64,000 nucleotides of DNA, taken from assembly GCA_965261085.1 (NCBI GenBank), contig OZ253442.1, forward strand, positions 128,001 to 192,000. The letters run 5' to 3'. Positions 5,362 through 25,562 of the stretch are shown here, one piece after another (the first letter of the stretch is position 1; each line of letters starts with the position of its first letter). Origin of the DNA: a bacterium (GTDB lineage: Bacteria > UBA8248). Below the pieces are notes generated by a model. It saw only the letters and a program-made list of their open reading frames with translations. It did not search any database and was not told the DNA's origin. The position numbers and the translations under genes are program-made.

Positions 5362-6396
5362 ATGAAAGCGATGGTATTGGCGGAACCGGGCGCGCCCTTT
5401 GTACTGGAGGAGCGGCCCATCCCCGTAGCGGGACCCGGCGAGGCCGTGGCGCGCGTGCTGGCCTGCGGCGCGGGCCTTACTATTGAACACACCCGGGCGG
5501 GCCGCATGGGCGGAAATTTTCCGCTCGTGATAGGCCACGAAATCACGGGCGAGATCACCCAAGTGGGCGCGGGCGTGGAGGGGCTCAGGGAAGGCGCGCC
5601 CGTGACGGCGTATTACTATTTCACCTGCGGGCGCTGCCGCTGGTGCCGCATCAACCGCGAGACCTTGTGCGAGAATCTCGCCGGCCAGGTCGGCCGCCAG
5701 ATGGACGGCGGCTACGCCGAGTACATCAAGCTGCCCGCCCGGAATTTCATCCCCCTGCCCGAGGAGCTGGACTACAAGGCGCATCCCGCCGAGGTCGGCG
5801 TCATCTCGGACGCCATAGCCACGCCGTACAAGGTGATCGGCCACGCGGGAATTCGCCCGATGGAGAACGTGGCCGTGGTGGGCGCGGGCGGCGGCGTGGG
5901 AATCCACATGGTGATGATGGCGCGCTGGGCGGGCGCGCGCGTCATCGCCGTCGATATCGCGGCCGAAAAACTGGGCAAATGCCGCGACATGGGCGCGCAC
6001 GAGACGGTGGATGCGTCTCAGGAAAACCTGGGCGAGGCGCTGCGGGATTTGACCGGGGGGGCGGGCGTGGACGTCGTCGTCGATTTCGTCTGCACCGCAG
6101 AGGGTGTCGAGGGCGGGTTGCGCGGACTGGGCAAGGGGGGCCGCTTCCTCGCCATGGGCGCCAACCGGATAGAGCGCTTCCCCTTTTCTCCCCGGGAGTT
6201 GCTTCGCGAGGAACAGCAGATCATGGGCAGCCGCTACGCCACCAAGCAGGAGGTCATCGACTCGCTCGAACTCGTGGCGCGCGGCGAGGCCTGGCCGCTG
6301 GTGAGCGAAACCTACCCGCTCGAAGAAGCCAACCTCGTACATGAACGCTTGAAAGAGGGCCGCGTCACCGGACGCGCCGCTCTGGTGATGTCTTAG
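5362..6396 (+). CDS. Zinc-binding alcohol dehydrogenase family protein
   Basis: GHEITG, structural Zn motif CGRCRWC...C, GAGGGVG; GGAG RBS before ATG 5362. Confidence 0.9.
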   Translation: MKAMVLAEPGAPFVLEERPIPVAGPGEAVARVLACGAGLTIEHTRAGRMGGNFPLVIGHEITGEITQVGAGVEGLREGAPVTAYYYFTCGRCRWCRINRETLCENLAGQVGRQMDGGYAEYIKLPARNFIPLPEELDYKAHPAEVGVISDAIATPYKVIGHAGIRPMENVAVVGAGGGVGIHMVMMARWAGARVIAVDIAAEKLGKCRDMGAHETVDASQENLGEALRDLTGGAGVDVVVDFVCTAEGVEGGLRGLGKGGRFLAMGANRIERFPFSPRELLREEQQIMGSRYATKQEVIDSLELVARGEAWPLVSETYPLEEANLVHERLKEGRVTGRAALVMS

Positions 6397-6503
6397 ACCC
6401 AAGAGACGCTTTCAGGTGGTCGGGGAAACGCACCCTGTGAGAGAGAAGCGGCGAAGGGCGACACCGGCTCGGCACGAGAAAGGCGACGGCGTCACAGAAC
6501 GAT

Positions 6504-7526
6504 TCATTTTATCTTCTGGTAAATACCAGCGCCAACCACGAAAAGTTGATCTCTGTCCGGCAAGGTAAAGCCTATGGCGTAGCTTTGTTTGGGCGAACCG
6601 GCGGCTTCGTCTCCTTTCACAGCCGGATTGTCCCAATAATAATCGACGAAGCCGCCTCCCGCTTTCGCCGCACCGATCAAACCTCTAATGAATTTGAATC
6701 CATTTATGTCTTTATAACCAAGCACGGTTTTACCCTCTTCGGATTGAGTACCCCCGTGAAAAAGCACGAAACCCTCATCGCTTATCACGAAGACATACAT
6801 GGAGCCGGACTTCCAATGCCCTCCCTCTACCCTGAATGCATTCTTCACGTGTGCGAGATTGGAGTAGTCTTTGCTGAGCAGGGCCTTGCGAAAAGTCAGG
6901 AGCGCTTCTCGCACGAATATCTTCAACGTTTCTTTACTCTTCACTTCACTGGCCGTTATCTTGGGACGCTCCATCTTGGGGATTTTGGTAACTACATTCG
7001 ATACATCCTGATAATAGCCACCGACCAGGATGAGGTTTTTGCCCGACAAGCCTGAAACATATCCGACGGCGTAGCTCAACTTGGGATTGGCATCCCCTTC
7101 CACCGAGGGATCGTCCCAATGATAATCGACAAAGTCGCCACCCCTGGCAGCCGCGGCGAGGAGTTCTTCCACCACTTTCTTTCCTTTGCCGTCTTCGACG
7201 TCAATCAGGTTTTTGTTCTCTATTTTGGCATCACCTCCGTGGAGGAGGACCGCGCCGCTTTTGAGTAGAATAGAGAGGAACATGGAGCCAGACTTCCACT
7301 CCCCCTCGGCCCTGAAGATATCACGGAGTTTTGCAGTCTCGGTAAGAGTGCGAATCCCCTCCAGAAACTTTTTCCCCCGGAGGACAAAGGCCTTCAGGGT
7401 TTTCCGATCCACGACCTCACCGGCTGATATCTTCCGGCCCTGAGCTACGGCGGGGCGCACGTCACAGAAAACACCGAGTAGCCCCAAGATACCGACCAAA
7501 GATATCACCAACACCATTCGCTTCAT
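6504..7526 (-). CDS. Secreted protein with two tandem single-Cache-like domains
   Basis: Signal peptide (MKRMVLVISLVGILG...AVA), then two homologous halves each with WKSGSM..., LHGG/FHGG, D..G, GG.FVDY.WD.P.V.GD and PK.SYA. Confidence 0.75.
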   Translation of the reverse strand: MKRMVLVISLVGILGLLGVFCDVRPAVAQGRKISAGEVVDRKTLKAFVLRGKKFLEGIRTLTETAKLRDIFRAEGEWKSGSMFLSILLKSGAVLLHGGDAKIENKNLIDVEDGKGKKVVEELLAAAARGGDFVDYHWDDPSVEGDANPKLSYAVGYVSGLSGKNLILVGGYYQDVSNVVTKIPKMERPKITASEVKSKETLKIFVREALLTFRKALLSKDYSNLAHVKNAFRVEGGHWKSGSMYVFVISDEGFVLFHGGTQSEEGKTVLGYKDINGFKFIRGLIGAAKAGGGFVDYYWDNPAVKGDEAAGSPKQSYAIGFTLPDRDQLFVVGAGIYQKIK

Positions 7527-7603
7527 GATAACTCCCTTACTCCGTAAGTTGATGGCATGTATCCACCGCAACGGTCATAGCAGAAACGTCCGGAGGAGAC
7601 CTC

Positions 7604-9064
7604 CTAACCATTCTCCTTCTCCAAAGCCTCCCTGCCGAACCGCTCTATTGTCTCGAGCGTTTCGCGCACGTCGTCCCAGGTCGTATTATGATTGATGATG
7701 CAGAGCCTGAGCGCAAACTTTCCCTTGAGAAGCGTCGATGAGAAGAAGGCTCGGTCGTCCCAGAAGATGCAGGCGAGCATCGTCTTGTTGATCTCCCCCA
7801 GGGCTTCCTCGCCGGGGTCTGATTCCGCCGGATTGACCCGGAAGCACACCACCCCAAGCGAGACGGGCGTCAACATCTCCAGAACCAGGCTCTCGCGAAC
7901 GTACTCCTCGGCACGCTCGGCCAGCTCCATTCCCTTCGAGACGGCTCGGCGGAACGCGGCCATCCCGAAGGTCTGCACCGACATCCAGACTTTCAAGGCC
8001 CGGAACGAGCGGCTCAGTTGCAGGCCGCGATCCGAGAAGTTCGGGTGGTTCGCGCCCCATATCGTATCCTGGAGAATATCGTGCCGCACCGCGAAGGCGC
8101 GCTCAAGCATACTCGTGTCCTTCACGAGCAAGGCGCCCGCCTCGTAGGGCTGAAAGAACCACTTGTGCGCGTCCATTCCAATCGAATCGGCGCGCTCCAT
8201 GCCGCGCATGAGTTCCTTGCCCCGCTCGGTCACGACCGCGAAGCCGCCGTAGGCGGCGTCGACGTGCAGCCAGATGTCTTCCGCCTCGCAGAAATCCGCC
8301 ATCGCCTCGAGCGGGTCGACCGCTCCCGTGCTGACCGCTCCGGCGTTGGCGCACACCGCGATGGGGTGAAGCCCCGCCGCGCGGTCTTCGGCCACGGCGC
8401 GCGCGAGGGCTCCCATATCCAGGCGGAAATCTCCGTCGCTCGGGAGCACCCTGATGCGCTCGGGCTTGACGCCGATGATCCGCACCGCGCGTATGTGGGC
8501 GCTGTGGCTCTGGTCGCTCATGTAGACGCTCGCGCGATCGGGATGCCCCGCGCTTTCACGCGCCGTAACGAAGGCATCCAGGCTGGCCGCCGAGCCTCCG
8601 CTCGTCAGGAGTCCGCCCGCGCCCTCGGGATAGCCGACCCAGCGCCGGAACCAGTCGATGACGACCAATTCGAGCTGGCTCGGGCCGCTCGCGATGAGCC
8701 AGGTGGCCGAGTTGACGTTGAAGCCCGCGGCCAGGAAGTCGGCCAGTACGCCGGGCCAGGTGGGTGAGGTGGGAATGAAGCCGAAGAAGCGGGGATGATC
8801 GTTGCGCCCCGTGAGAGGGAGAATATCGCGCGCGGCCCGCTCGAGAACATCCATCGCCGGCCGTCCCTCCTCGGGCGGAGCCTCCAGCAACTGTTTCTCG
8901 AGTTCCTGCTGGAAATCTCCATCCCAGGCCCCTTCTCCCGGCAGCTTCTCGATTCGCTCCACCAGGAGTTCCGCCGCCCTGCGCGCCAGATCGAGCATCT
9001 CTTCGGGAGCCATCCGGAGATCATCGCCTCCCGGGCCAGACGCTTCTCTTCTTGAGTCTTCCAT
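7604..9064 (-). CDS. PLP-dependent group II decarboxylase (aromatic-L-amino-acid decarboxylase-like)
   Basis: HPRFFGFI, LTSGGS, WLHVDAAYGG, DAHKW (PLP lysine) and LSRSFRALKVW. Confidence 0.9.
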   Translation of the reverse strand: MEDSRREASGPGGDDLRMAPEEMLDLARRAAELLVERIEKLPGEGAWDGDFQQELEKQLLEAPPEEGRPAMDVLERAARDILPLTGRNDHPRFFGFIPTSPTWPGVLADFLAAGFNVNSATWLIASGPSQLELVVIDWFRRWVGYPEGAGGLLTSGGSAASLDAFVTARESAGHPDRASVYMSDQSHSAHIRAVRIIGVKPERIRVLPSDGDFRLDMGALARAVAEDRAAGLHPIAVCANAGAVSTGAVDPLEAMADFCEAEDIWLHVDAAYGGFAVVTERGKELMRGMERADSIGMDAHKWFFQPYEAGALLVKDTSMLERAFAVRHDILQDTIWGANHPNFSDRGLQLSRSFRALKVWMSVQTFGMAAFRRAVSKGMELAERAEEYVRESLVLEMLTPVSLGVVCFRVNPAESDPGEEALGEINKTMLACIFWDDRAFFSSTLLKGKFALRLCIINHNTTWDDVRETLETIERFGREALEKENG

Positions 9065-9338
9065 AGAGCCCCTCCTATCGTCCCAGAATAATTTGGAACA
9101 CATAACGGGTCCGATGGCACTAAAAGTGAATGGAGCCCTCGTTGCTCCATTCCCAACCGGGTTCGGAACTCGAACACATGAATATAAAACATTCTTTCCG
9201 ATTGTATGTCCCGAAACTATGATTAATTCAGATCATCGAGTCAAGATGCCGCTCGAAATTCCCGCTCCCGCCCCGGCCACCGGGCGTATCCGGCGCAAGG
9301 CGCCCACAACTACATTGAACCAACAATAAGGCGATGAG

Positions 9339-9367
9339 TTGCCAAACACGGAGAAATTCTATATGTT
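9339..9367 (+). promoter_or_regulatory. Possible sigma70-type promoter for the STAS gene
   Basis: TTGCCA-N17-TATGTT in an AT-rich intergenic region. Confidence 0.3.
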
Positions 9368-9555
9368 GAGAAGCACTTTTTTCAAAGAAATGGTCCTGTA
9401 TGACTAAGTTGCCTGTCCGAGAATTAGTGGGGTAGACTTGCGTTCATGCAAGAAGAGGTGTTGCGCTAGGTGTATTGAATTTGCTATCTGTTCAAACACC
9501 CTCGGGGTATTGGGTCAATAAAGAAACCTCACGCTGTTGGGAGGCAGAGCCAAGC

Positions 9556-9894
9556 ATGGAAATCAAGACTGAGCAGGAAAACGGGACCTTGGTTGTGCAG
9601 GTTGATGGCCGCATCGACGGGGCTACCGCCCCTGAATTCGAGAGCATGATTAAGAACGTCATCAGCGACGACGACCGCGCCGTCATCGTCAATTTCGAGG
9701 GTGTCTCATATATCAGCAGCGCCGGCCTCCGCGCCGTCCTGCTGGTCGCCAAGCAGCTTAGTCAAAGCAATACGAAGTTCGCCCTGTACGCGCTCGGGGA
9801 ACTGACGCGCGAAGTTTTCGAGATATCCGGTTTCGACCGCATCATCCAGATCCACGGCTCGAAAGCGGACGCGCTCGCCTCAACCGCGAACTGA
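9556..9894 (+). CDS. STAS-domain anti-sigma factor antagonist (RsbV/SpoIIAA-like)
   Basis: GRIDG, YISSAGLRAVL with the phosphoacceptor Ser, VFEISGF; 112 aa. Confidence 0.92.
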   Translation: MEIKTEQENGTLVVQVDGRIDGATAPEFESMIKNVISDDDRAVIVNFEGVSYISSAGLRAVLLVAKQLSQSNTKFALYALGELTREVFEISGFDRIIQIHGSKADALASTAN

Positions 9895-10037
9895 CGGCCC
9901 GAAGGCAAGGAGCGAAAACGCCCTTCTCGCCGTTTCGCGTTGTGGATTCGCGCGTCGCGGTTCTTGCCGCGACCGCAACAATCCTTCATCTCTCTCTAAA
10001 TTATTTCAGAACTTTTTAGGTGGAAAGCCGCGGCGGA

Positions 10038-12227
10038 TCACCGAGGCAACTCGATGATCATTTCCGTGAACTCATCAGGCTCGGTTTCCACTCGTATGCT
10101 TCCCCCATGCTGACGAATAATGTCGCTGGATAGGGAAAGGCCGAGCCCGGTGCCCTTGTCCGTCGGCTTGGTCGTGAAGAAGGGGTTGAATATCTTCTCG
10201 ACGACTTCGGGCGGCATACCGCTCCCGTTGTCACGAATGCGGATCTCGATGCCGTCCGGCCTGCACCTGGTGAAGAGGCGAAGGGTGGGGTCGTAACGCG
10301 GCGCATCTTCGGCGGCTGAGGCGGCGTGACTTTTTCGTCTCTCGTCCGTGGCGTAGCTGGCGTTGCTCACCATGTTCAGGAAGACACGGCCCAAATCCTG
10401 TGGAATGACCTCGCACTCCACCATGTCGGGGTCCAAATCCCAATCGATCGTGAGGTTGAAATTCGGGTCGGCCGCCCGGGCGCTGTGATAGGCGAGACGC
10501 GCGTGCTCTTCGAGCAGGGTATTGATATTGGTCGGCTGCGCTTCGCCTGAACCCCGGCCCATCTGGAGCATGCTCTCCACGATGTTGTTGGCCCGTTCCC
10601 CGTGTTCGCGGATGCGCTTGAGGTTGCCGGTGAGGTCCTCTCCGATTTCGTTGATGATCTCGATCGGATCTTCCTCGTCCTTTTTTTTCTCCTCCTTATC
10701 CGTTTCTTGCCCATTTTCCTGTCCGTTGCCGCCGAGTTGCGCCACCTTCTCCAACTCTTCCAACAATTCCTCCATCAGCTCCTCGGAGACTTCCGAGAAG
10801 TTCTTGATGAAGTTCAGCGGATTCCTGATCTCGTGGGCCACGCCCGCCGTCAACTCACCGAGCGCCGCGAGTTTCTCGCGCATGACGATCTGATCCTGCG
10901 CCTTCTCCAGATCGCCCAGCGCGCTTTCGAGTTCCTCATTCTTGCCCTTGATCTCCTCGGCCAGCTTCTCCACCAGGTTCAGGCGCTGCACCTCCAGGGC
11001 GTGGCGGCGGAAGATTTCGAGCGCCGCGGCCATTTCCGCGACTTCGTCCTGCCCGCCGATGTCGACCTTCTCCTCCAGATCGCCGTCGGCCATTCGGCGC
11101 ATGCGGTCCGAGAGCCGCCCCAGCCGGCGCGACAGCACCCGGCCGATGAACAGCCAGCCGATCAGTACGGCGCCGATGAAGCTGATTGCGCTCAGCGCGA
11201 GCAGGATGTTGCCGCCCGTGCTGACGGCTTGGGCGGAATCCTGGGTGGCCTGCCGCGCGCTCTTGCGGGCCGTGCTCACCAGCGTTTCGGTGGCGGCCAG
11301 GATTTTCGCTTCCAGAGATTCGTGAAACGCGAGCAACTCACTCTGTTTCCTCTCGAGCTCCAGTTCACCCGCGCGCAGGTTGAAGCCCCCATCCTCCCCG
11401 ATGCTCAGTTCGATCATCTGCTCGAAGAGAGGCTCGAGAGCGGTGCGCACCGGAACCTCCCCGAGCGCGGCAAGACGCCGCCTGATGCCGCGCACCGTGG
11501 CCTCGAAACGCTCGCTCAGCGGTTCGAGCAGGGCGGCGTCCGATACGCTGAAGGCGGTGGCGAAAAGCTGCGTCGCGATGGTGGCGTCCGACCTTAAACC
11601 GGCGATGTAACGGTAGAGGTTGATTCCCTCTTCGGAGAAGTGTTTCTCGCGGGGGACGGCAGCCTCGTCGATTTTGCGATAGCCCGTTATCGCGTAGAAC
11701 AACTGATCGTCGATGGCGGGAACCATGACGTTGTTCAGCTCCTTGCGCACCCATGTGAGCTGGAGTTGCAGCGTATCGCGCTGATCGGTGAGGTCGAAGC
11801 GCTGCAACACCAATTGTTTGATGGCTCTGAGGTTCTCGATTAGCACGTCGCCGAGCTTCTTGATGCGCAGGGAGATTTCCTCGTTTACTCCCTGTCGTAT
11901 CAGCGCCGCCAGCGCAGTCTCGAACGCCTCCTGGTCATTGGCGACTTCGGTGGCGATCTGGTCCAGATTGTCGGGATTCACGACTGCGGCCAGGCGCGGC
12001 GCGGCGGCCACCAGGGCGCTGCTTTTCTGGGCGGTCTCGAAGGCGCTCGCCAGGAACGGAACGGTGCCCTCGTTCACGCGGTTCTGCACCTCTCCCACGA
12101 AAGCGAACGAGACCCATGCGACCACGCTCGCTATGACGGTGAGAGAGGCGGCGGCGCCGATGCTGAGGTAGAGTTGCATCGATATCTTGTAACGCTTGTC
12201 CAGGAGGTTTTTCAGCGCGCCTTTCAT
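10038..12227 (-). CDS. Membrane sensor histidine kinase (large helical periplasmic domain, TorS-like; HAMP; HisKA; HATPase)
   Basis: Two TM helices flanking about 300 aa, HAMP (DEVAEMA), GVAHEIRNPLNF, IRDNGSG and FFTTKPTDKGTGLGLS; start overlaps the upstream stop. Confidence 0.92.
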   Translation of the reverse strand: MKGALKNLLDKRYKISMQLYLSIGAAASLTVIASVVAWVSFAFVGEVQNRVNEGTVPFLASAFETAQKSSALVAAAPRLAAVVNPDNLDQIATEVANDQEAFETALAALIRQGVNEEISLRIKKLGDVLIENLRAIKQLVLQRFDLTDQRDTLQLQLTWVRKELNNVMVPAIDDQLFYAITGYRKIDEAAVPREKHFSEEGINLYRYIAGLRSDATIATQLFATAFSVSDAALLEPLSERFEATVRGIRRRLAALGEVPVRTALEPLFEQMIELSIGEDGGFNLRAGELELERKQSELLAFHESLEAKILAATETLVSTARKSARQATQDSAQAVSTGGNILLALSAISFIGAVLIGWLFIGRVLSRRLGRLSDRMRRMADGDLEEKVDIGGQDEVAEMAAALEIFRRHALEVQRLNLVEKLAEEIKGKNEELESALGDLEKAQDQIVMREKLAALGELTAGVAHEIRNPLNFIKNFSEVSEELMEELLEELEKVAQLGGNGQENGQETDKEEKKKDEEDPIEIINEIGEDLTGNLKRIREHGERANNIVESMLQMGRGSGEAQPTNINTLLEEHARLAYHSARAADPNFNLTIDWDLDPDMVECEVIPQDLGRVFLNMVSNASYATDERRKSHAASAAEDAPRYDPTLRLFTRCRPDGIEIRIRDNGSGMPPEVVEKIFNPFFTTKPTDKGTGLGLSLSSDIIRQHGGSIRVETEPDEFTEMIIELPR

Positions 12228-13411
12228 CACTTCTCCGGTCGCCGGATTTTTTCGGTCGGAATGTAACGGCCGCCCTCTCCGATGACGGTGAGGAAAACGG
12301 CGTCCGAGCCCTGGTTGTCGTCCTTGCCGTAGCGGAGCTTGAATCCGCCGAGGTCGATGTTGGCCGCACGGCGCAGACCCTTGAGAAGACAGTCGCGATC
12401 GGGCTTGCGCCCGCACAACTCAAGAGCACGAATGGCCAGTCTGCCGGCCATGTAGCCCTCGAAGGAAACGAAGCTGGGAGCCGCACCGGGCTTGTGGGCT
12501 TCCAGATCCCGGCGGTAGTCCGCCGCGATCTGGAGGTTCTCCGTCGTCGGGAATGGAACCACCTGGGTGACGTAGATACCAATGCCGGCGGGGCCGAGTT
12601 CACGCACGAGCGCATTGCTGCCCACGAAGGAGATCGTCACGAAAACCGGATTGAAATTCATATGGCGCGCCCAGGCGATGAAGGAAGCGACCGGCTTGTA
12701 GGCTCCCACGAGGACCACCGCCCCGGGGTTCGCGCGCCTGATGTCGAGCAGAGCCGTTTTGACCGCCGTCGTATTTCGTGGATAGACTCCGGTGACCGCC
12801 GGTTTGAGTTTGCGCCGCGCGAGGGCGCGACGAACGCCCCGGTAGCCCGCCAGACCAAAAGAATCGTCCTGATAGAGAACGGCTATCTTCTTGATGCCCA
12901 GGTCATTGATCAGCCGGTTCACCATCTCCTCGGTTTCCTGGAAGTAGGAAGCGCGCAGGTTGATGATGTTCTTCCACTTCGGATCGCGAAGGAAGGCGGC
13001 GCCGGTGAAGGGCGCGATATAGGGGACGCCCGCCTTCGCGGCGACCGGGGTGGCCGAGCGCGAGGTGGGCGTGCCGACGGCCCCGATGAGGGCGAAGACC
13101 TTGCTCTGTTCTATCAACCGGCGGGTGTTCAGGATGGCGGCTTCAGGCTCATACGCATCGTCGAGGGAGGTGATTTCGAGCCGGCGCCCGTGAATGCCGC
13201 CACGCACGTTCGCCGCGCGAAAGGCGGCTTCGATGCCGAGGCGCATCTCCTCGCCCAGAGCCCTCGCGGGTCCGGTGAAGGCGGCGGACTGGCCGAAAAG
13301 AATCCGCTGGGGGGAAACCCCGGGCACGGCCGCGTGCGCCCCCGGCGCCGAACAGATAATCACTCCGGCAAGAAGGGAAAGCGCCCGGCGGATTCGGAGC
13401 GGGAGCCTCAT
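12227..13411 (-). CDS. Periplasmic ligand-binding protein (Leu/Ile/Val-type) with no adjacent transporter
   Basis: Signal peptide, ILFGQSAAFTGP, LDDAYEP, LIGAVGTPT, NLRASY..E and YQDDSFG. Confidence 0.88.
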   Translation of the reverse strand: MRLPLRIRRALSLLAGVIICSAPGAHAAVPGVSPQRILFGQSAAFTGPARALGEEMRLGIEAAFRAANVRGGIHGRRLEITSLDDAYEPEAAILNTRRLIEQSKVFALIGAVGTPTSRSATPVAAKAGVPYIAPFTGAAFLRDPKWKNIINLRASYFQETEEMVNRLINDLGIKKIAVLYQDDSFGLAGYRGVRRALARRKLKPAVTGVYPRNTTAVKTALLDIRRANPGAVVLVGAYKPVASFIAWARHMNFNPVFVTISFVGSNALVRELGPAGIGIYVTQVVPFPTTENLQIAADYRRDLEAHKPGAAPSFVSFEGYMAGRLAIRALELCGRKPDRDCLLKGLRRAANIDLGGFKLRYGKDDNQGSDAVFLTVIGEGGRYIPTEKIRRPEK

Positions 13412-13827
13412 TCACTCCTCCGCTTGACAAGGCGCATATGGTTCTTGTTCTCCTCCCGTCGATAGGACACCTCGTCCATCATCGTCCGCACCAGATGGAT
13501 GCCGAGCCCGCCCACGGCGCGGTCTTCGATGCTCGATTCGGTATCCGGTTCGGGCGCGTCGGTGAGAGGGTCGAACGGCCGGCCGTCGTCGATGATCTGG
13601 ATGCTCACCGCTTTCTCGTCCGAGACGAGTTCGATTTTGATTTCACCCTCTCCGCCGCCGCTGCCGTGGTTCACGACGTTGAGGACTAATTCTTCGAGCA
13701 CGAGGTCGACCTGGAATTCGATGTCGGGCGGCCAATCCTGCTCCCGGCTGAATTCCCCGATGGCGGCTTGAATGCGTGGGAGGTCGGCGACTTCAAACCC
13801 CATTTTCAAGGAAAGTTTCGCGCTCAT
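13408..13827 (-). CDS. Anti-sigma factor Ser/Thr kinase (RsbW-like HATPase)
   Basis: EELVLNVVNHG (N box), DDGRPFDP, GGLGIHLV. Confidence 0.92.
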   Translation of the reverse strand: MSAKLSLKMGFEVADLPRIQAAIGEFSREQDWPPDIEFQVDLVLEELVLNVVNHGSGGGEGEIKIELVSDEKAVSIQIIDDGRPFDPLTDAPEPDTESSIEDRAVGGLGIHLVRTMMDEVSYRREENKNHMRLVKRRSE

Positions 13828-15041
13828 TCACTCCCTCCGCGGCGATAAAGGGTCAGGCAGGTAATATCATCGAATTGGGGTGCTCTGCCCGCGAAATCCT
13901 TCACCGACTCGAAAACCTTCGTGTTGATCTCCTTGGCGGAGGTCGGCGGCGAACCCCCGAGAATCCCCCGGAGGCGATCGAGACCGAACTGCTCGGTCTT
14001 CTCGTTCTCGGCCTCCGTCACGCCGTCGGTGTAGAGCACGAGGGCGTCACCTCTCGCGAGAGTCGCATTGTACATGTCGTAGTCGAATTCAGGCGCGATC
14101 CCCAGAGCGACCCCCGGAGCCTGGGCAAGCAGACTCGAGGAGCCGTCGGCATGGAGGATGACCGGGGGATTGTGCCCGCCGTTGGCGTAAACGAGTTCCC
14201 CGGTTGTGGAGTCGAAAATGGCGAAGAAGACGGTGACGAACATCACGGCGTCGTTGTTCTCCTGAAGGAGGCGGTTCACCTCGCTCAGCACGTCACCGGG
14301 CCGGAGCAGACGATTCACCTCGCCGAGCACGTCGCCCGGATTGGCGCGCGCGACGGCGACGCTGTTGAGCAGCGTGCGGCTCGACATCATGAAAAGGGCG
14401 GCGGCCACCCCCTTGCCCGAAACGTCGGCGACCATGATTCCGATGCGGTCGTCGGCCAAATTGATGACGTCGAAGAAATCACCCCCCACGTCACGGGCGG
14501 GTTCCATACCCCCGAATATCTCGTAGTGAGGGCTTTCGGGAAATTGGGTCGGCAGGATCGATTGCTGCATCCTGCTGGCCAGGTCGAGATCGCTCCTGAG
14601 CGCGACCAGCTTGTCGCGCGCATCAAGGGCCTCGCGCAGCATGGCGAGGTGCTCCAGTGTCCGCTCTATGGTGATCCGCAAATCCTCGAAGTCGATCGGC
14701 TTGGTGACGAAGTCGAATGCGCCCCTGTTCATCGCCGTGCGGATGTTCTTCATGTCCCCGTAGGCCGAGACGACCACGGAGCGCACATTGGGGTCGACCG
14801 AGGGGATTTGCTTGAGCAGCGTGAGGCCGTCCATCTCCGGCATGTTGATGTCGGTGAGCACCATGTCGATAGGCTCGCCGCCGCCGTTATCGTTGAGGCG
14901 CTCGAGCGCCTCGACCCCGTTGCGCGCGAAGACGAACGAATAGCGGCCCCGCCGAATCTCGCGCCGCATGCGCTGGAGCACGAGTTGTTCGAGATCGGGC
15001 TCGTCGTCCACCACGAGTATCCTGTGGGGCTCTTCCATCAC
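13824..15041 (-). CDS. Receiver domain plus SpoIIE/PP2C phosphatase (RsbU-like)
   Basis: REC (VVDDE, DINMP, TKP), then VGGDFFD, ADVSGKG, NGGHNPP, YTDGVTEA and DDIT. Confidence 0.93.
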   Translation of the reverse strand: MMEEPHRILVVDDEPDLEQLVLQRMRREIRRGRYSFVFARNGVEALERLNDNGGGEPIDMVLTDINMPEMDGLTLLKQIPSVDPNVRSVVVSAYGDMKNIRTAMNRGAFDFVTKPIDFEDLRITIERTLEHLAMLREALDARDKLVALRSDLDLASRMQQSILPTQFPESPHYEIFGGMEPARDVGGDFFDVINLADDRIGIMVADVSGKGVAAALFMMSSRTLLNSVAVARANPGDVLGEVNRLLRPGDVLSEVNRLLQENNDAVMFVTVFFAIFDSTTGELVYANGGHNPPVILHADGSSSLLAQAPGVALGIAPEFDYDMYNATLARGDALVLYTDGVTEAENEKTEQFGLDRLRGILGGSPPTSAKEINTKVFESVKDFAGRAPQFDDITCLTLYRRGGSE

Positions 15042-15478
15042 GGCCTCCCTTCAGCCAGCATCTTGTCACGCGCCTCGAACGCCTCCCGCATATTAGCGAG
15101 ATGCTTCACGGACTTGTCGATGGTCAACCGCAGATCCTCGAAATCGATCGGTTTGTTGAGAAAATCGAACGCGCCCCGGTTCATCGCCGTGCGGATGTTC
15201 TTCATGTCCCCATAGGCGGAGACGATCACGCAGCGGACCTTGGGGTCGTAAGCCGGGATTTGTTCGAGCAGCGTGAGGCCGTCCATCTCCGGCATGTTGA
15301 TGTCCGTAATGACGATGTCGATTTCACCGTCCTCTTTCAGGCGTTCGAGCGCCTCGACCCCGTTGCGCGCGAAGACGAACGAATAGCGTCCGCTGCGAAT
15401 CTCGCTCCGCATGCGCTGCTTCAAGAGGTCTTCCAGGTCGGGTTCGTCGTCGACTACGAGTATCTTGTGCGAATCCAT
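15038..15478 (-). CDS. Single-domain response regulator
   Basis: ILVVDDE, TDINMPEMDG, NKP; nearly identical to the REC domain of the next gene. Confidence 0.9.
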   Translation of the reverse strand: MDSHKILVVDDEPDLEDLLKQRMRSEIRSGRYSFVFARNGVEALERLKEDGEIDIVITDINMPEMDGLTLLEQIPAYDPKVRCVIVSAYGDMKNIRTAMNRGAFDFLNKPIDFEDLRLTIDKSVKHLANMREAFEARDKMLAEGRP

Positions 15479-15909
15479 CGTCCTGGTCTCCCCAACTCTC
15501 AGACTTTGCCCGACCAACGCTCAAACATTTTCGAACGCCCGCTCAATGTATATAAGACTCGCGCGTCGCGCAACTCATTTCTCACTCCGCCTCGTGTCCG
15601 AACGAGGCTGCGCGGCGGCCCGCAACCCCCTGAAACCAGGGCTTCACCGGCGCTCGCTCCCGGCTCGACACCGCTCGACCGGCGGATTTCATCCATCCCG
15701 ATTTCTCCTCCCGCGAGTGTTCCGACCTCCCGATCCCGTGAACCGATTCTGCGCCGAATGGAGATGAAGCCGTGAAAATTTCATCCGCCGCCGGTTGTTC
15801 CGGCCCTCTCGTTTGCGTATCTTGGAGTAGCCATCCGCCAGGATGGCGTGCGCCGCCGACAGCACTTGAAGAGAAAGGCCCTGCCTTGTCCCGCAAACAA
15901 TCAAGAAAA

Positions 15910-16473
15910 ATGAAAAATCCCGGTCCCACAGGGCGCGGCGCTTCGCGTCCGGCGGCGGCCATAGGTTCAAAGAACAACAGCACGGCCCCGCTCGTCTGGG
16001 CGAGCGTCATCGTCGCGGTCGTCTTCGGCATCTATTACTTATCGGGCGCATCCGCGAACAAGGCGCGCGACGCGCCCTCCCTCGGCAACCGCCACATCCG
16101 CGTCGGCACGAGCCCCGCCATCTCCTATAATACGGACCCTCCCACCTCGGGGCCCCATTATCCGACCATCGTCCGCTGGGGCGTGCACCAAAGGCCCATC
16201 GACAAGGGCTTCCAGGTGCATAACCTCGAAGACGGCGGCGTGCTCGTTCAGTATAACTGCGGCGATTGTCCCGAACTCGTGAAAAAACTCAGAAATCTGG
16301 TGCTCGGCTACCCGAAGTTCGTCATCCTCGCCCCCTACCCGTCCATGAAACACAGAATCGCGCTCACCGCCTGGGGCAAAATAGATACGCTGGACGCTTT
16401 TGATGAAAAGCGCATCACCTCCTTCATAAACGACTTTCGCGGCATCGACCACCATGTGCGGGGAAGCAGATAA
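15910..16473 (+). CDS. DUF3105-type membrane-anchored protein
   Basis: N-terminal TM helix; YNTDPPTSGPHY, VHNLEDGGV.VQY and IALTAWG; start could be TTG 15886. Confidence 0.8.
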   Translation: MKNPGPTGRGASRPAAAIGSKNNSTAPLVWASVIVAVVFGIYYLSGASANKARDAPSLGNRHIRVGTSPAISYNTDPPTSGPHYPTIVRWGVHQRPIDKGFQVHNLEDGGVLVQYNCGDCPELVKKLRNLVLGYPKFVILAPYPSMKHRIALTAWGKIDTLDAFDEKRITSFINDFRGIDHHVRGSR

Positions 16474-16479
16474 GGCTTC

Positions 16480-18252
16480 TCAACTCCCCCCGCCGCGCGC
16501 CGCGCCTGCGGCTTCCACGCGAACCGTCACGATGTCCGTATCGTGGTATTGCTGGTGGCGAACCGAGGAGGCGAGGTGGCGCAGCAGTCTGAGCGAGACT
16601 TCTCTCTCGATCGGCGCGGCTGCCGTCTGCTCGCCGAGCAGCGCGATTTTATCCTGGAGATTCTCCTCACCGCCCGCGGCGACGAACTCCAACACCGCGC
16701 CGCCGTCTTCTTTGTGGGCCACCACGAGCAGACGCCGCCGCTCGCGACCCTCGTCGGCTTCCTCCTGGCGCAGAAGCGTCAGCAGCGTCTCCTCACCCGC
16801 GGCGTCCAGGCGATGCGCCATCGCCGCATCCCAGCCACCGGCCGAGGCGAACTCGCCGAGAAACTCCCTTATCTTCGGTAAGGCCGAGAGGTCGAACGCC
16901 ACTTCGAGCCTGCTGCGCCGCGGTTCGGTGAGCTCGACGAACAGGGTCATGATCATGGCGACGAGGCCGCCGGCGGTCATTCCGTTACCCAGCAGGCCGC
17001 CCGCGAACGTGGAGAAATACTCAGGGTAAATCACTCCGTTCTGAAAGCCGACGCCCGCCCAGAACGCGACGCCCGCGACCAGCCCCTTGCGGTAGTCGAC
17101 TCCGTCCTGAACGATCATCCGCATGCCGACCACGAAGAGCATCGCCAGCAATACGGTGATGTAGGCCGCGGCGACCGGACCCGGTATCGCGAGCACCACG
17201 GCGACGAGCTTGGGAAGAAACGCCAGGGAGAGGAACACCAGCCCGGCGGCGACTCCGACGCTGCGCGCGCCGACGCCGGTGAGTTCGGTGACGGACACGC
17301 TCGTCGAATAGGTCGTGTTCGGCACCGTCGCCAAAAGGCCGGAGAGCAGGTTGCCCACCCCGTCGGCGGCCACCGCGCCCTGCACCGCCTTAAAATCCAC
17401 CGCCCGGGGCCGCCGCCAGGACACGCGCTGGATGGCGGCGGCGTCGCCCACGGTTTCGATGGCGCCGATCAGGGTCACGAACACGAACCCGGGAAGAAGC
17501 GCCCAGAAAACCGGCCCGAAGCTCAGATCCAGGCCCGGCCACGCGCCGTGGGGAAGGCCGATCCACGAGGCCCCGGCGACGCGGGCCGTATCGTAGATGC
17601 CGAAATAGCCTCCGATGAGCGAGCCCGCGACCACGCCGACCACCGGCGCCCACAGGCGCAGCGCCCCCGTCGCCTTGAGCGCGATGCCGACGATGACGGC
17701 CACTGTCGCCAGAGCGCTCAACGGGGCGGCGAGCGGCGGGCTGTCCTTCGGCACGTCCTTGAGCATGCCGAAGACTATCGGCATCACCGTCACCGCTATC
17801 AGCATGATGACGGTCCCCGCGACCGTCGGCGTCAGCACCCTCCTGAACAGGGAGAGGCGTTCTGAGAGCACGAACTGAAACAGCGAGGAGGCGAGAACCA
17901 GCGTGGCGAGCATCGCAGGTCCTCCCTGGGCGAGCGCCGCGATGCATACCGCGATGAAGGCGCCCGAGGTGCCCATGATGAGCACGTAGCCCGCGCCGAA
18001 ACGGCCGATGCGCACCGCCTGGAGCACCGTAGTCGCGCCGCAGACCGCCACCGCGGCGAACACGGCCCACGAGAGATAGGCCTCGGTTCCGCCGGCGGCC
18101 CGCACCACGATCGCAGGCGTGAAAACGATACCGCCCACGCAGAGGATGGCGAGTTGCAAACCCAGACCGAACGCGAGAAAGAACGGCGGTTTTTCGTCGG
18201 CTTCGTAGCGTACGCCGGTGTTCACGTGCTGGCCGGAATCCCTGGCGCTCAT
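16480..18252 (-). CDS. NCS2 (xanthine/uracil permease) family transporter fused to a C-terminal degenerate RsbW-like domain
   Basis: FGLGLQ, MGTSGAF, PTVAGTVIMLI, ETVGD, ADGVGNL, PNTTYSTS and FLPK..A....IP.PV; the last approx. 145 aa are soluble and align with the RsbW-like protein in this window. Confidence 0.85.
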   Translation of the reverse strand: MSARDSGQHVNTGVRYEADEKPPFFLAFGLGLQLAILCVGGIVFTPAIVVRAAGGTEAYLSWAVFAAVAVCGATTVLQAVRIGRFGAGYVLIMGTSGAFIAVCIAALAQGGPAMLATLVLASSLFQFVLSERLSLFRRVLTPTVAGTVIMLIAVTVMPIVFGMLKDVPKDSPPLAAPLSALATVAVIVGIALKATGALRLWAPVVGVVAGSLIGGYFGIYDTARVAGASWIGLPHGAWPGLDLSFGPVFWALLPGFVFVTLIGAIETVGDAAAIQRVSWRRPRAVDFKAVQGAVAADGVGNLLSGLLATVPNTTYSTSVSVTELTGVGARSVGVAAGLVFLSLAFLPKLVAVVLAIPGPVAAAYITVLLAMLFVVGMRMIVQDGVDYRKGLVAGVAFWAGVGFQNGVIYPEYFSTFAGGLLGNGMTAGGLVAMIMTLFVELTEPRRSRLEVAFDLSALPKIREFLGEFASAGGWDAAMAHRLDAAGEETLLTLLRQEEADEGRERRRLLVVAHKEDGGAVLEFVAAGGEENLQDKIALLGEQTAAAPIEREVSLRLLRHLASSVRHQQYHDTDIVTVRVEAAGAARGGGS

Positions 18253-18457
18253 CTCGCATCCTTCCCGGCTGGAAAGCGGGTCTTCGGTGGAGCGGAAACC
18301 TGCGTTCGATGTGGTCGCAACCGAACCGGATTTTCTCACACCTCTTTTTGTCCCTCAAGAAAAAAGGCCTGCGAAGGACATCGATGGGCGAATGTTCAGG
18401 GTTTGAGGCGAAAATCGCATTTTTTGCGTATTTTTTTGGCGGGCAATTACAATTTTG

Positions 18458-18485
18458 TTGACGAAACGAACACGCCATATATACT
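18458..18485 (+). promoter_or_regulatory. Sigma70-type promoter upstream of the RiPP precursor
   Basis: TTGACG-N16-TATACT, with AT-rich sequence upstream. Confidence 0.5.
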
Positions 18486-18637
18486 TTTCGGGTAACGTCT
18501 TCTTATTTTGCCTGGACATAAGGGCGGCAAAGCAACCACTCTCTCCCGGACACGGCGGCTATGGAGCCCCGGCGGGAGAAAGTGAGGAAGCACTGCCCGC
18601 TTTTGGAGCAGGCTTATCATCTGGAGAACTCGAAACA

Positions 18638-18925
18638 GTGAAAACCGTAGAGGAAGTGCGCGAGGAAATTATCAGAAAGGCGAGCGAGAACGAGGCGTTC
18701 CGCTCCGAATTGCTGGCCGACCCCAAGGCCGCCATTGAACGGGAATTGGGGGTCACCATTCCCGATGGGTTCAAGATCGGCGTGCACGAAGACAACATCA
18801 TGAGCTTTCACCTGGTGTTGCCGCCGGCCGAGTTGAGCGAGGCGGACCTGAGCGCCGTCGTGGCCGGAACGCAGACGATGCAAGACTTCGCCAACGCCTG
18901 GAACAACTTGAACCAGAACTCCTGA
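18638..18925 (+). CDS. NHLP (nitrile hydratase-like leader peptide) family RiPP precursor
   Basis: GTG start after GGAG; IIRKASENEAFRSELLADPKAAIE..LG..IP, HLVLPP, ELSEADLSAVVAG (double-Gly-type site); predicted core TQTMQDFANAWNNLNQNS. Confidence 0.88.
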   Translation: MKTVEEVREEIIRKASENEAFRSELLADPKAAIERELGVTIPDGFKIGVHEDNIMSFHLVLPPAELSEADLSAVVAGTQTMQDFANAWNNLNQNS

Positions 18926-19120
18926 TACGATATACCGAAAGAGTTCCATAATCTGATCGACAGGTTTGCCGAAAAACCCTGAGAGGGGATTGGTTCGGGA
19001 TGCCGCTTTGTGGGTTTGAACGGCTCTGCGGTCCACTTCGTTGAAGGGAGACCGAAGAGCCGAACTTGCTCATCGTCGTCTTGACCCCAATGTACGTATC
19101 CCGCTCAGAAACAGGATTCG

Positions 19121-20218
19121 ATGATGTCTGAGAATTTCGGGGACGTCTTTCCAAGGTTGCGCCGCTTTTTCCCATCCTCCCTGCTTGACGACCCGTGGTG
19201 GGATCGGCTGGTGGAGCGCGTCGGCGAACTTCCGAGTTGGCTGACCCTGAACTACGCAGCCTTCGAGTTCCGGTTGGGAGACCCTGCGCCCGCCGCCGAT
19301 TATTTCGTCTCGGTTACGCCCGGGCGTCCATCCATGGAGTATTACGTCCACCTGGGCGAGGACGCAAAACCGGACTCCGCCGAGGCGGCCCTCGCCCGGG
19401 TCTACGCCCGCATGAACGGGGCGGGCTCCCCTTCCGAATCCTCTCTCGCCGGCTGGTTCAGAGCGTCGATGCTCGAATACGACATCGCGGAGATTCCTTT
19501 GAACCAGCGACAGCCCCCGGGCGTGTTCCTGGCGCTTCAGCCTCAATCCGAACTGGATGAAAACCTCGTGGGTTCGCGAACTCCTGACCGCCTGGCCGCC
19601 ACCATAGTGAGCGCGGTCGGGTGGGACGAGGACGAGGAAGAGCGCCGCGCCGTGGAACGGGCCTTCGCCGCCTTGCCCCGGGACGGCGTGGTGGATCAGA
19701 TCGGCGCCGCGGCGCAGCGCGAGCCGCGCTCCATCCGCCTCATCGTGGACGGGTTGAAAGGGCGCAACATGCCGGCTCTCCTGAAGCGGCTGAAATGGGA
19801 AGGCCCCACCCGGAAGGTGATGGACGTTTTAGAGGAGATGCGCGACGTGACGCCGGTCTTCCGGCTCGCGGTGGACGTCGGCGCGCACGGCGTGGGGCCG
19901 CGCCTGGGCCTCGAGATGTACAGGCCGAGAAAACCCTCGAACCTCGACTACTGGCTGACCTCGGGGCGCAACGCCTGGCGTCCCGTCGTGGACTACCTCG
20001 AAGAGATGAAATGGTGTCTGCCGGAAAAGGGAGACGGCCTGCGCGCATTCCCGGGAATCGAGCGAATTTTCGATGAAAACGGCATGTCCATCCTGTATAA
20101 GGGAATCAACCACTTCAAGCTGTCCATCGAGGGCGACGCCGTCGAGGCCAAGGCCTACGCCGCCCTCGCCTACTTCCGGCTCTACGCTCCCTCCGAGGAA
20201 GAATCTGAGCCGGCGTGA
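19121..20218 (+). CDS. Putative RiPP maturase, possibly an ABBA-like prenyltransferase
   Basis: Directly follows the precursor; motifs FEFRLG, LEYD, IRL, DVG..GVGPRLGLE, LPEK..L..FPG and HFKL...EAKAY, which I recognise from proteins encoded near NHLP/Nif11 precursors; function inferred. Confidence 0.5.
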   Translation: MMSENFGDVFPRLRRFFPSSLLDDPWWDRLVERVGELPSWLTLNYAAFEFRLGDPAPAADYFVSVTPGRPSMEYYVHLGEDAKPDSAEAALARVYARMNGAGSPSESSLAGWFRASMLEYDIAEIPLNQRQPPGVFLALQPQSELDENLVGSRTPDRLAATIVSAVGWDEDEEERRAVERAFAALPRDGVVDQIGAAAQREPRSIRLIVDGLKGRNMPALLKRLKWEGPTRKVMDVLEEMRDVTPVFRLAVDVGAHGVGPRLGLEMYRPRKPSNLDYWLTSGRNAWRPVVDYLEEMKWCLPEKGDGLRAFPGIERIFDENGMSILYKGINHFKLSIEGDAVEAKAYAALAYFRLYAPSEEESEPA

Positions 20219-20309
20219 TCGGGGGGGGCGGGGGGCGGTCAATCAGACGGCGGGGTGGTTTTTTGGAGAAGTAATTATACGCTTGTCTAACTATATAAGG
20301 AATTTATAT

Positions 20310-21560
20310 TCAAATTGATATTTTGGTTTGCTTGGGCAACAATTTGTCAAAATCACTTTTATTAATCAAATTATCAGCAAATCCTCTCATGACAATATAT
20401 GGCCGCATCAGTGGACTGTTAAAACGATAGCGTATCTGACGTTTTGGACCCGTTCGATAAAGAAGTCCTCCACGTTCTTTACCACTCAATTCTTTCAGGT
20501 GACGGGCGAAATTTGGAATATCATATGAGCGATTCGTGATAATTCGCAAAGGTTCCCGAACATTCGCTGCAGAGAAATATCCGAGGTCGTCATTCTCAGC
20601 GAATGCACAAGCCAAAACAACTTCTCTGAAGATGTGACCTGGTTGCTGGCTCTTGGTTGCACGATAATACGCCATCTTGATTGATTCTTGCCATTGTTCG
20701 AGGGCTCTTTCCATTCCTTCGTTTACGTCTTGATTTTCAAGCTCTTTACTTTCTCTCTTTATTGCCACCTTTGTAGCGTGAAGCGCGAGCAGGTGGGTAA
20801 CATATGGCAAACCCTGAGACAGGCTAACAATTTCTGATTTTGCATCATCTTTAATTTTCATCTGTAGTCGCCCCATGCCTTTTGCAACAATTTCGGCAAT
20901 TTCAGTGTTTGACATACGCGGCATCGGTACTTGGACAAGCGCTCGTTCGATGGATTGATGCTCGCTGATCAATTCGTCTACAGAATCTGCGACACCGATC
21001 AGAAGAATTGTAGCTTTAACACTATAATCAGAAAGACTTTTGATTGTGTCAGCCATTACGGCGGGAATTTCACTGTTCACTGTCCGATCGAACTCATCAA
21101 ATACTGGAACAAGAATAATTCCGTGTGAAAATTCATCTAAAATTCTACGAATATCTTCTGGAGATAAATTTTCAGGAAGGCTCTCCACAAGTTTCCGTCT
21201 AACACTAACTTCTTGTTTGGTAAATCCAACCCCAGGACGTGTCGCAGTTAAGGTGATGTTGTCAAACTGTTTTTTCCACAGACTTGTGAATGTATCAGTT
21301 GTGTCACAATTTACGCGTGGAAGGAGAAATCTTCCGCCAGTTTTGTGCAAAAAACTTAAAAGGACATTAGATAATGAAGTCTTTCCAACTCCACGCTCAC
21401 CATAAAGAACCGCATGGTAACCACGCTGAGAAATAGTGTCGATTATCTTATTTACTTGGTCAATCCTACCCGAAAATAATTCAGCCTCACTGATTGGGGC
21501 ACCCGGCGTGAACACTTGGTTCGCATTAAACTCTAACTCAGCCCAATAATCGCTCGCCAT
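20310..21560 (-). CDS. AAA+ ATPase (Orc1/Cdc6-like, with probable C-terminal winged helix)
   Basis: FTPGAP...LFSGR, Walker A YGERGVGKTS, Walker B VFDEFDR, SQGLPYVTHLL; AT-rich. Confidence 0.85.
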   Translation of the reverse strand: MASDYWAELEFNANQVFTPGAPISEAELFSGRIDQVNKIIDTISQRGYHAVLYGERGVGKTSLSNVLLSFLHKTGGRFLLPRVNCDTTDTFTSLWKKQFDNITLTATRPGVGFTKQEVSVRRKLVESLPENLSPEDIRRILDEFSHGIILVPVFDEFDRTVNSEIPAVMADTIKSLSDYSVKATILLIGVADSVDELISEHQSIERALVQVPMPRMSNTEIAEIVAKGMGRLQMKIKDDAKSEIVSLSQGLPYVTHLLALHATKVAIKRESKELENQDVNEGMERALEQWQESIKMAYYRATKSQQPGHIFREVVLACAFAENDDLGYFSAANVREPLRIITNRSYDIPNFARHLKELSGKERGGLLYRTGPKRQIRYRFNSPLMRPYIVMRGFADNLINKSDFDKLLPKQTKISI

Positions 21561-21576
21561 ACGCCACCTCAAGCGT

Positions 21577-21735: not shown

Positions 21736-21853
21736 CCGAGGGTAAGCTTTGCCTAACGCGGAAGGAGCTAATCAACGATGCAGTAGATCGTCAGGCAAAG
21801 CGCATCGCCTTCGTGGACGAGAATCTGACTAATCCTTCTGCCGGAGCAATCCA

Positions 21854-25540: not shown

Positions 25541-25562
25541 GACGGCTCCCTCGCATGAAGGT

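Follow-up and report, generated by a model that had tools for sequence, protein, structure and literature searches.

An NCS2-type permease with an RsbW-like tail encoded beside a partner-switching cascade

Genes at the permease locus

We analysed a window of 64,000 nucleotides (the whole stretch of bacterial DNA under study, part of contig OZ253442.1) and concentrated on positions 6504-20218, where a permease of the NCS2 type with a C-terminal extension is encoded beside the genes of a partner-switching cascade. The open reading frames (ORFs) of this region were scanned with Pfam, also read at E≤10, and with NCBIfam. All ten gene types that an earlier note on the same DNA (the original prediction) had named for the region are present, as judged by Pfam and NCBIfam matches and, for the permease tail and a protein of 365 amino acids (aa), by predicted fold. 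None of the 62 window ORFs scanned (outside the region, those of at least 150 aa) matches a sigma-factor family, so the earlier observation that the STAS/RsbW/PP2C module has no sigma factor beside it stands.

The permease is encoded on the minus strand in the ORF at 16480-18339, with a likely start at position 18252 (M30, set from the family alignment) that gives a protein of about 590 aa. The Pfam model Xan_ur_permease (PF00860) matches residues 59-431 (1.1e-42, 146.6 bits against a cutoff of 27), and the protein scores under every NCBIfam NCS2 cutoff (TIGR00801, 162.5 versus 291.8; TIGR03173, 185.4 versus 414.15; NF037981, 36.7 versus 40). The NAT signature of this superfamily lies in transmembrane helix 10 and reads Q/E/P-N-x-G-x4-T-R/K/G. 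The stretch of the permease opposite the UapA motif reads T-S-V-S-V-T-E-L-T-G, in which only the Thr and the final position match, and the Glu of transmembrane helix 8 is retained in the UapA alignment. The membrane part is, by these sequence comparisons, a divergent NCS2 transporter; because its NAT motif region is divergent and the NCBIfam cutoffs are missed, a nucleobase substrate is not assumed. A riboswitch could have given a clue to the substrate, and no Rfam match was found at E≤1 in positions 6000-21000.

The last 187 residues of the permease (433-619) match no Pfam family at E≤10 and so fall outside PF13581, the HATPase_c_2 family to which RsbW-like kinases belong. Within this segment, residues 470-619 (16483-16932, minus strand) form a domain that was recognized by fold and by profile-profile comparison. 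For these comparisons and those below, related loci were collected from the species-representative genomes of GTDB, where 594 of 612 matched stretches were confirmed; all counts of permease loci cover the best 80 of the 594, that is, the closest relatives of the window protein. A hidden Markov model (HMM) built from 14 RsbW-like kinases encoded next to permeases matches the permease ORF in 52 of the 80 loci (E from 1.4e-7 to 1e-2), and an hhalign comparison of the tail with the alignment of neighbouring kinases gives 94.2% probability and E 1.2e-7 over 54 columns, most clearly at the N-terminal end. An AlphaFold (AF2) model of the tail (pLDDT 78.4) has as its best Foldseek matches in the PDB the anti-sigma factors UsfX (8ih8_C, 3.8e-7), SpoIIAB (1th8) and RsbW (6m37), with 8jzt also among them, all at probability 1.0, E 3.8e-7 to 8.8e-4 and a target-normalised TM score of 0.65-0.76, while sequence identity to UsfX, RsbW and SpoIIAB is about 10-21%. 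The clusters nearest to the tail in a protein language model also carry HATPase_c_2. On the strength of the model and the profile comparisons, the C-terminal 150 or so residues are predicted to have an RsbW/SpoIIAB/UsfX-like fold.

The tail shares this fold with UsfX, RsbW and SpoIIAB, but unlike them it has no PF13581 match, no N-box Asn and no glycine boxes, and it is fused to a membrane permease. In the hhalign comparison the N-box Asn, invariant in 10 of 10 kinases, falls on a Thr; no Asn was seen by eye at this position in 81 family tails, and the G1 and G2 boxes, also compared by eye, have no counterpart. Since the N-box Asn and both glycine boxes are lost, the tail looks, from sequence, like a catalytically dead pseudokinase, which bears out the claim of an NCS2 fusion to an RsbW-like domain without ATP-binding motifs. 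The tail is recognizable as one of the HATPase_c_2 kinases by fold and not by sequence or motifs, and we therefore call it RsbW-like and not an RsbW. It is nevertheless under constraint, with 33 positions at least 95% conserved among 83 sequences and a mean pairwise identity of 0.64, compared with 0.74 in the membrane core.

The cascade genes form an operon on the minus strand in which successive genes overlap by 4, 4, 4 and 1 nt. Its first gene encodes a single-domain response regulator (REC, 15038-15517; PF00072 4.7e-27) and is followed by a REC-PP2C phosphatase response regulator of the SpoIIE type (13824-15041; PF07228 4.1e-52, PF00072 1.2e-23), whose best NCBIfam match is the Pseudomonas RssB type at 117 bits, under the cutoff of 700. 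Next come an RsbW-like serine kinase of 139 aa (HATPase_c_2, 13408-13827; PF13581 7.4e-27) and a Peripla_BP_6-type periplasmic binding protein that carries a signal peptide (12227-13411; PF13458 5.4e-57). The last gene encodes a sensor histidine kinase (ORF 10038-12416), whose likely start, M64 at 12227, overlaps the stop of the binding-protein gene by 1 nt. On the plus strand, divergent from a decarboxylase gene described below, lies the gene of a single-domain STAS protein (ORF 9475-9894, likely start M28 at 9556; PF01740 1e-19, TIGR00377 79 bits against a cutoff of 53.45).

Both small partners of the switch keep their motifs. In the kinase, 10 of 10 relatives share unchanged N, G1 and G2 boxes (EELVLNVVNH, DDGRPFDP and GGLGI). 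In the STAS protein, two blocks, SYISSAGLRA and FEISGF, do not vary among 13 of 13 sequences drawn from two phyla; the Ser of SYISSAGL is, we assume, the counterpart of the phospho-Ser of SpoIIAA. From these motifs the free kinase and the STAS protein look functional. A STAS antagonist, an RsbW-like kinase and a PP2C phosphatase are all encoded in the module, and a cognate sigma factor is absent from it.

The sensor kinase consists of a first transmembrane helix, a periplasmic sensor of about 300 aa resembling that of TorS, a second transmembrane helix, HAMP, HisKA and HATPase, with no receiver domain (TorS_sensor_domain 1.6e-5; TIGR02956 aligned over residues 78-499; all scores under the curated cutoffs). 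As in the TorT/TorS system, a binding-protein gene stands beside a kinase with a TorS-like helical periplasmic sensor; unlike that system, the binding protein is of the Peripla_BP_6 type, an amino-acid/amide type and not a peptide-binding one, and the kinase has neither receiver nor HPt domains. The suggestion that ligands are sensed in the periplasm agrees with this gene content, in which a binding protein and a sensor kinase feed the cascade.

Between the REC gene and the permease gene lies one gene that was not in the earlier list, encoding a DUF3105 protein (15772-16473, plus strand; PF11303 8.9e-26) with a hydrophobic stretch at its N-terminus. It is convergent with the permease gene, their stop codons being 6 nt apart, and it is found in 10 of the 80 loci, all belonging to the clade of the window. 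Two ORFs on the opposite strand of this gene (15582-16031 and 16039-16455, both minus) have no family match and were set aside as shadow ORFs.

Permease relatives and the linkage to the cascade

The tail-bearing permeases are a large family. With 8000 candidates scored, at least 2949 proteins clustered at 90% reach E≤1e-3, and clustering at 50% identity gives 598 clusters that reach this threshold. Full-length members measure about 567-597 aa, with the RsbW-like domain at the C-terminus. When ten candidates for a stand-alone tail were fetched, nine were short (141-199 aa) and at least five began inside the last membrane helix; most of these short matches look like fragments, and two may be free-standing.

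The permeases of the 80 loci, all of them in metagenome-assembled genome (MAG) records, are 61-91% identical to the window protein and come from at least nine phyla (Pseudomonadota 42, Nitrospirota 10, Spirochaetota 7, Nitrospinota 4, Rhodothermota 3, Acidobacteriota 2, and Binatota, Verrucomicrobiota and Thermodesulfobacteriota 1 each, with 9 unclassified). In the permease tree, shallow clades track taxonomy and the distances between phyla are very short; this, and identity so high between members of different phyla, suggests that one gene has spread horizontally. Two loci labelled Candidatus Foliamicus (L038:10028-13505 and L071:10028-13682) each hold two tandem copies of the tail-bearing permease, and in one MAG the two paralogues (L007 and L055) are unlinked and the cascade lies beside just one of them.

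Neighbouring genes were identified by tblastn with the window proteins and by family-specific HMMs; in 67 of the 80 loci the sequence extends 7 kb or more to either side of the permease gene. The full cascade (STAS, sensor kinase, binding protein, RsbW-like kinase and REC-PP2C) adjoins the permease in 13 of the 80: nine close relatives of the window (80-94% identity) in a Nitrospinota-like clade, and four Nitrospirales (L062, L068, L073 and L080). A fourteenth locus, on a contig of 4 kb (L010), shows only REC and the beginning of REC-PP2C.

The Nitrospirales genes run in a different order, with the permease followed by RsbW on the opposite strand, STAS, REC-PP2C, binding protein and sensor kinase, so that the free kinase gene lies directly beside the 3' end of the permease gene. 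Identity to the window proteins is 31-34% for RsbW, 34-38% for STAS and the sensor kinase, 46-48% for REC-PP2C, 58-63% for the binding protein and 67-69% for the permease. This module is compact, lying between mreBCD/PBP2/rodA genes and a LolA-like gene, and has no DUF3105 gene; among 12 ORFs scanned in L062, none matches a sigma-factor family. In the permease tree the clade of the window (12 rows) stands apart from the four Nitrospirales rows, and each of the two groups is a well-supported clade.

Peptide pair, decarboxylase and flanking genes

Upstream of the permease gene and on the plus strand is the gene of an NHLP-leader precursor of 95 aa for a ribosomally made, post-translationally modified peptide (RiPP; ORF 18455-18925, likely GTG start at 18638). 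It scores 65.8 bits with TIGR03793 against a cutoff of 50.9, NCBI annotates its relatives as 'NHLP leader peptide family RiPP precursor', a GGAGAA site precedes the GTG start, and a consensus promoter-like site (a pattern match only) lies at 18458-18485. In the precursor the NHLP leader is followed by an acidic linker that contains an L(x)4L motif, by VVAG, and by a core of 18 residues, of which the final ten, including one Trp found in 9 of 9 copies, are nearly invariant. More distant precursors have Trp-rich cores, and those of P0355 and P0356 end in Trp with repeated Asn-Trp, which recalls the C-terminal Trp of PalX.

The next gene (19121-20218, plus strand) encodes the 365-aa protein, which matches nothing in Pfam (E≤10) or NCBIfam and falls outside PTase_Orf2 and Trp_DMAT; leads to these two families in a language-model atlas score below 0.9, and its 62 homologues, the distant ones at 36-50% identity, are all unnamed and carry no Pfam domain. 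Its AF2 model (pLDDT 90.3, pTM 0.89) matches 79 PDB chains at E≤0.001, and all 36 of those listed are ABBA aromatic prenyltransferases, among them AmbP1, TleC, EpzP, NphB, CloQ, FamD1, PriB, IptA and CymD (probability 1.0, E from 3.8e-7; TM score 0.41-0.56 and identity 9-16% to the solved enzymes). In the model the invariant acidic and basic residues sit on barrel strands, which fits a working active site. The earlier description of this protein as a prenyltransferase-like maturase is upheld by the ABBA fold together with the conserved Trp of the core.

We presume that the 365-aa protein modifies the precursor, and predict Trp prenylation from the adjacency of the two genes and the conserved Trp. 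The pair is probably a separate two-gene cassette that makes a Trp-prenylated peptide, which would be linear because no lanthionine synthetase is encoded here; no leader peptidase or exporter was found in the region by the Pfam scan. Leader-dependent Trp prenylation of such peptides has precedents: the ABBA enzyme MppC acts on a lanthipeptide with a Nif11 leader (PMC12715784), and PalQ, of the isoprene synthase superfamily, works on an NHLP precursor whose gene adjoins that of a histidine kinase (PMC10853753). The window pair resembles the MppC and PalQ systems in its long structured leader (NHLP or Nif11), L(x)4L motif, Trp core and adjacent prenyltransferase. It differs from the MppC system in lacking the lanthionine synthetase and in having an enzyme that matches no Pfam prenyltransferase model, and from ComQXP and PalQXP in that the modelled fold of the 365-aa protein is ABBA and not the ComQ-type isoprenyl diphosphate synthase fold. 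The pair is present in 8 of the 80 loci, all close relatives, and is absent from all four Nitrospirales loci and from L011, where the cascade is kept and a DNA methyltransferase gene takes the place of the pair.

At the other end of the region, a group II decarboxylase dependent on pyridoxal phosphate is encoded at 7604-9103 (minus strand; PF00282 1.4e-65). Its best PDB match is 4obu (1.6e-78), which we take to be a bacterial tryptophan decarboxylase, followed by plant and animal Tyr, DOPA, Trp and aromatic amino-acid decarboxylases; as the nearest solved relatives act on aromatic amino acids, an aromatic amine is the likely product. The gene is found in nine of the 80 loci, namely eight close relatives and L036, and is absent from L004, where an ADH gene follows STAS. 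L036, a gammaproteobacterial MAG locus without the cascade, supplies a second association of permease and decarboxylase: its decarboxylase is 78% identical to that of the window and is encoded divergently, directly beside a family permease (L036:8614-9954 and L036:10007-11782).

The low-coordinate end of the region is occupied, between an ADH gene and the decarboxylase gene, by the gene of a secreted tandem Cache protein (ORF 6504-7571, gene taken as 6504-7526, minus strand; sCache_2 2.9e-29, also dCache_2), which has a signal peptide and neither a membrane nor an output domain. This gene is found in none of the 80 loci and none of the nine close relatives, two of which have little or no sequence past the decarboxylase; a 26% match to the Cache protein in L035 proved to be something else. 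The ADH gene comes immediately after the decarboxylase gene in L002 and L011, which points to a recent insertion of the Cache gene in the genome of the window, and the GC content of 6001-8000 is 0.566, compared with 0.60-0.63 on either side. The decarboxylase and Cache genes are variable, accessory neighbours. For the co-occurrence count that the original prediction proposed, the cascade accompanies the permease in 13 of 80 loci, the decarboxylase in 9, the peptide pair in 8 and the Cache gene in none.

The high-coordinate end of the region has a low GC content (45% in 20001-22000). The low-GC stretch 20001-22300 encodes a STAND/AAA NTPase (20310-21572, minus strand) and a DUF488 protein (21854-22291, plus strand); the STAND NTPase gene is found in none of the 80 permease loci, and neither gene adjoins the cluster in relatives. 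This stretch could be an insert of mobile or defence type marking the limit of the region, and no tRNA gene that could mark an island border was found in the window. A second low-GC stretch (47%), at 1-2000, encodes an HD-domain protein (67-1404, minus strand). Elsewhere in the window, 24323-41971 has ordinary catabolic content (acyl-CoA dehydrogenases, a 3-hydroxyacyl-CoA dehydrogenase, an AMP-dependent ligase, a thiamine pyrophosphate enzyme, an IclR regulator and a luciferase-like monooxygenase), and 49985-63998 encodes two transporters of the MMPL/sterol-sensing type, a cytochrome P450, a KshA-like Rieske oxygenase, an amine oxidase-like flavoprotein and an outer-membrane barrel protein; this set resembles a cluster for the catabolism or export of lipid- or steroid-type compounds and has no relation to the permease finding.

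A possible partner switch acting on a transporter

Taken as a whole, the 14-kb stretch appears as a mosaic around a conserved core made up of the overlapping operon, the divergent STAS gene and the pseudokinase-tailed permease. We tentatively favour, at slightly under even confidence, a reading of this core as a partner switch, triggered by a ligand, in which the STAS protein would dock on the dead kinase domain of the permease. By analogy with known systems, a small periplasmic ligand would load the binding protein, which would then dock on the TorS-like sensor of the kinase. The operon structure suggests that the sensor kinase would phosphorylate REC-PP2C, with the lone REC serving as a sink or competitor. 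The 139-aa kinase would phosphorylate the conserved Ser of the STAS protein and the PP2C phosphatase would dephosphorylate it; the motifs for this step are present, and the chemistry is presumed. In the weakest step of the scheme, unphosphorylated STAS would bind the pseudokinase tail and alter transport. The tail would be able to hold STAS, yet unable to phosphorylate and so release it.

This reading gains support from the RsbW-like tail, the intact motifs of STAS and kinase, and the linkage in two phyla. The linkage has outlasted both rearrangement of the genes and divergence of the small cascade proteins to 31-38% identity, and no other obvious output of the cascade is encoded nearby in the window or in L062.

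The proposed arrangement would amount to a trans version of the STAS domain that is fused to SLC26 transporters, which have the same 7+7 fold. That SLC26 shares its fold with SLC23 is described in PMC8256260 and PMC6497670. The SLC26/SulP proteins are the closest analogue in concept, and the window permease resembles them in combining a transporter of 7+7 inverted repeats with a C-terminal cytoplasmic domain drawn from the anti-sigma partner-switching toolkit. The differences are that the fused part here is the RsbW-like half and not STAS, that the transporter is of the NCS2/SLC23 type, and that in 13 of the 80 loci the neighbourhood includes a gene for a free STAS protein.

A partner switch fed by a two-component system has a precedent in RsbK-RsbY-RsbV-RsbW of Bacillus cereus. 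Unlike switches of that kind, the window cascade has as its input a sensor kinase assisted by a periplasmic binding protein, and as its candidate output a pseudokinase borne by a transporter. Outputs other than an adjacent sigma factor are also known, PA3346/PA3347 being described in PMC8256260. There, as is proposed here, a phosphorelay acts through a REC-PP2C protein (in Pseudomonas aeruginosa, HptB-PA3346/PA3347) on the phosphorylation state of a single-domain STAS protein and is opposed by an RsbW-like kinase; unlike in PA3346, the kinase of the window is a separate protein of 139 aa, not fused to REC-PP2C.

Several observations weigh against a partner switch acting on the permease. The expectation that the genes would be linked across genomes holds in so far as permease and cascade recur, in rearranged order, in a second phylum, but 66 of the 80 loci are without the cascade, and the family-specific STAS, PP2C and kinase HMMs match nothing there. 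Clustering of 6416 flanking ORFs gave no neighbour family that extends beyond 14 loci. Among 365 ORFs of 85-700 aa within 3 kb of the permease in cascade-less loci (35 longer ones being excluded), the commonest Pfam families have just 3-5 members each, and STAS, HATPase_c_2 and SpoIIE are outside the 25 commonest families in every batch, where two of the three batches reach down to single-member families and the third could hide at most two hits per family. The 66 cascade-less loci show no conserved neighbour. Their permeases carry an equally conserved tail, whose function therefore cannot depend on an adjacent cascade. L006, inside the clade of the window, is without the cascade within 3.3 kb downstream. 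A tree joining the two cascade clades is not rejected (p-AU 0.572), so the linkage may have a single origin and is not counted as two independent events. In neither lineage is the permease co-transcribed with the cascade, since a convergent gene intervenes, and another possible target of the free RsbW-like kinase is a sigma factor whose gene lies elsewhere.

These points lead to the best-placed alternative, in which the permease is independent of the cascade, its tail is a general module for dimerisation or stability or a membrane-tethered anti-sigma domain, and the adjacency is synteny inherited from a single transfer. A dimerisation or stability role has also been proposed for the STAS domain of SLC26. 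The many loci with neither cascade nor conserved neighbour (66 of 80, with no neighbour cluster above 14 loci), the uniform conservation of the tail, the separate transcription unit of the permease and the compatibility of a single origin with the tree test all suit this explanation, as does the fact that the best structural matches of the tail are anti-sigma factors in complex with sigma F or an antagonist. It accounts less readily for a linkage that survived rearrangement and divergence of the small cascade proteins to 31-38% identity, for the compactness of the Nitrospirales module between unrelated housekeeping genes, and for a cascade with no other obvious output nearby, and we regard it as a serious but unlikely explanation.

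The permease might also be the input of the system, a transceptor that, depending on the flux of its substrate, would use its tail to pair with the free RsbW-like kinase or to sequester it, and would so set the phosphorylation state of STAS, the target of which would lie elsewhere. RsbW and SpoIIAB act as dimers. The homology between tail and free kinase, clearest over the N-terminal 54 columns, is in line with such pairing, and so is the Nitrospirales arrangement in which the kinase gene abuts the 3' end of the permease gene; but the cascade already has a dedicated input in its binding protein and sensor kinase, and most permeases of the family have no such kinase nearby, which makes this role improbable.

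The original prediction went furthest in treating all ten genes as one self-contained system, in which a prenylated peptide, an amine or both would be self-made signals sensed through the Cache protein and the binding protein/kinase, with the permease as output, and this is hardly probable: the adjacency of the peptide pair and of the decarboxylase in the window and 8 of 9 full-length close relatives, the 78% identical decarboxylase beside a family permease in L036 and the Paenibacillus case of an NHLP precursor whose C-terminal Trp is prenylated and whose gene adjoins that of a histidine kinase (PMC10853753) speak for it, but the peptide pair, decarboxylase and Cache gene prove separable among relatives (L011 has the cascade without the pair, L004 is without the decarboxylase, none of the 9 close loci shows the Cache gene, and all three are absent from the Nitrospirales module), neither a leader peptidase nor an exporter was found in the region, and Peripla_BP_6 is not generally regarded as a peptide-binding family. 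Adjacency is all that points to the peptide or the amine as a signal sensed here.

The reading of the locus as a partner switch docking on the permease could be extended to the tail-bearing NCS2 permeases at large, as a large, undescribed class gated by partner switching in which a free phospho-regulated STAS protein switches uptake on or off; we consider this wider claim doubtful but worth stating. A literature search, with subscription journals and supplements outside its coverage, brought up nothing on a fusion of an NCS2 permease to an anti-sigma-like domain.

Sigma factors, freed or trapped, are the chief known targets of partner switching, and STAS domains fused to SLC26 transporters have long hinted at a connection with transport. 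If the wider claim is true, the tail-bearing permeases would be the mirror image of the SLC26-STAS arrangement and would give the first bacterial partner switch with a transporter as its output in place of a sigma factor. Permeases with RsbW-like tails beside a full set of STAS protein, kinase and phosphatase in two phyla offer a concrete, testable pair. The tail itself is a conserved domain that current family libraries leave unannotated, and the minimal cassette of precursor and predicted ABBA prenyltransferase would extend the short list of leader-bearing prenylated peptides.

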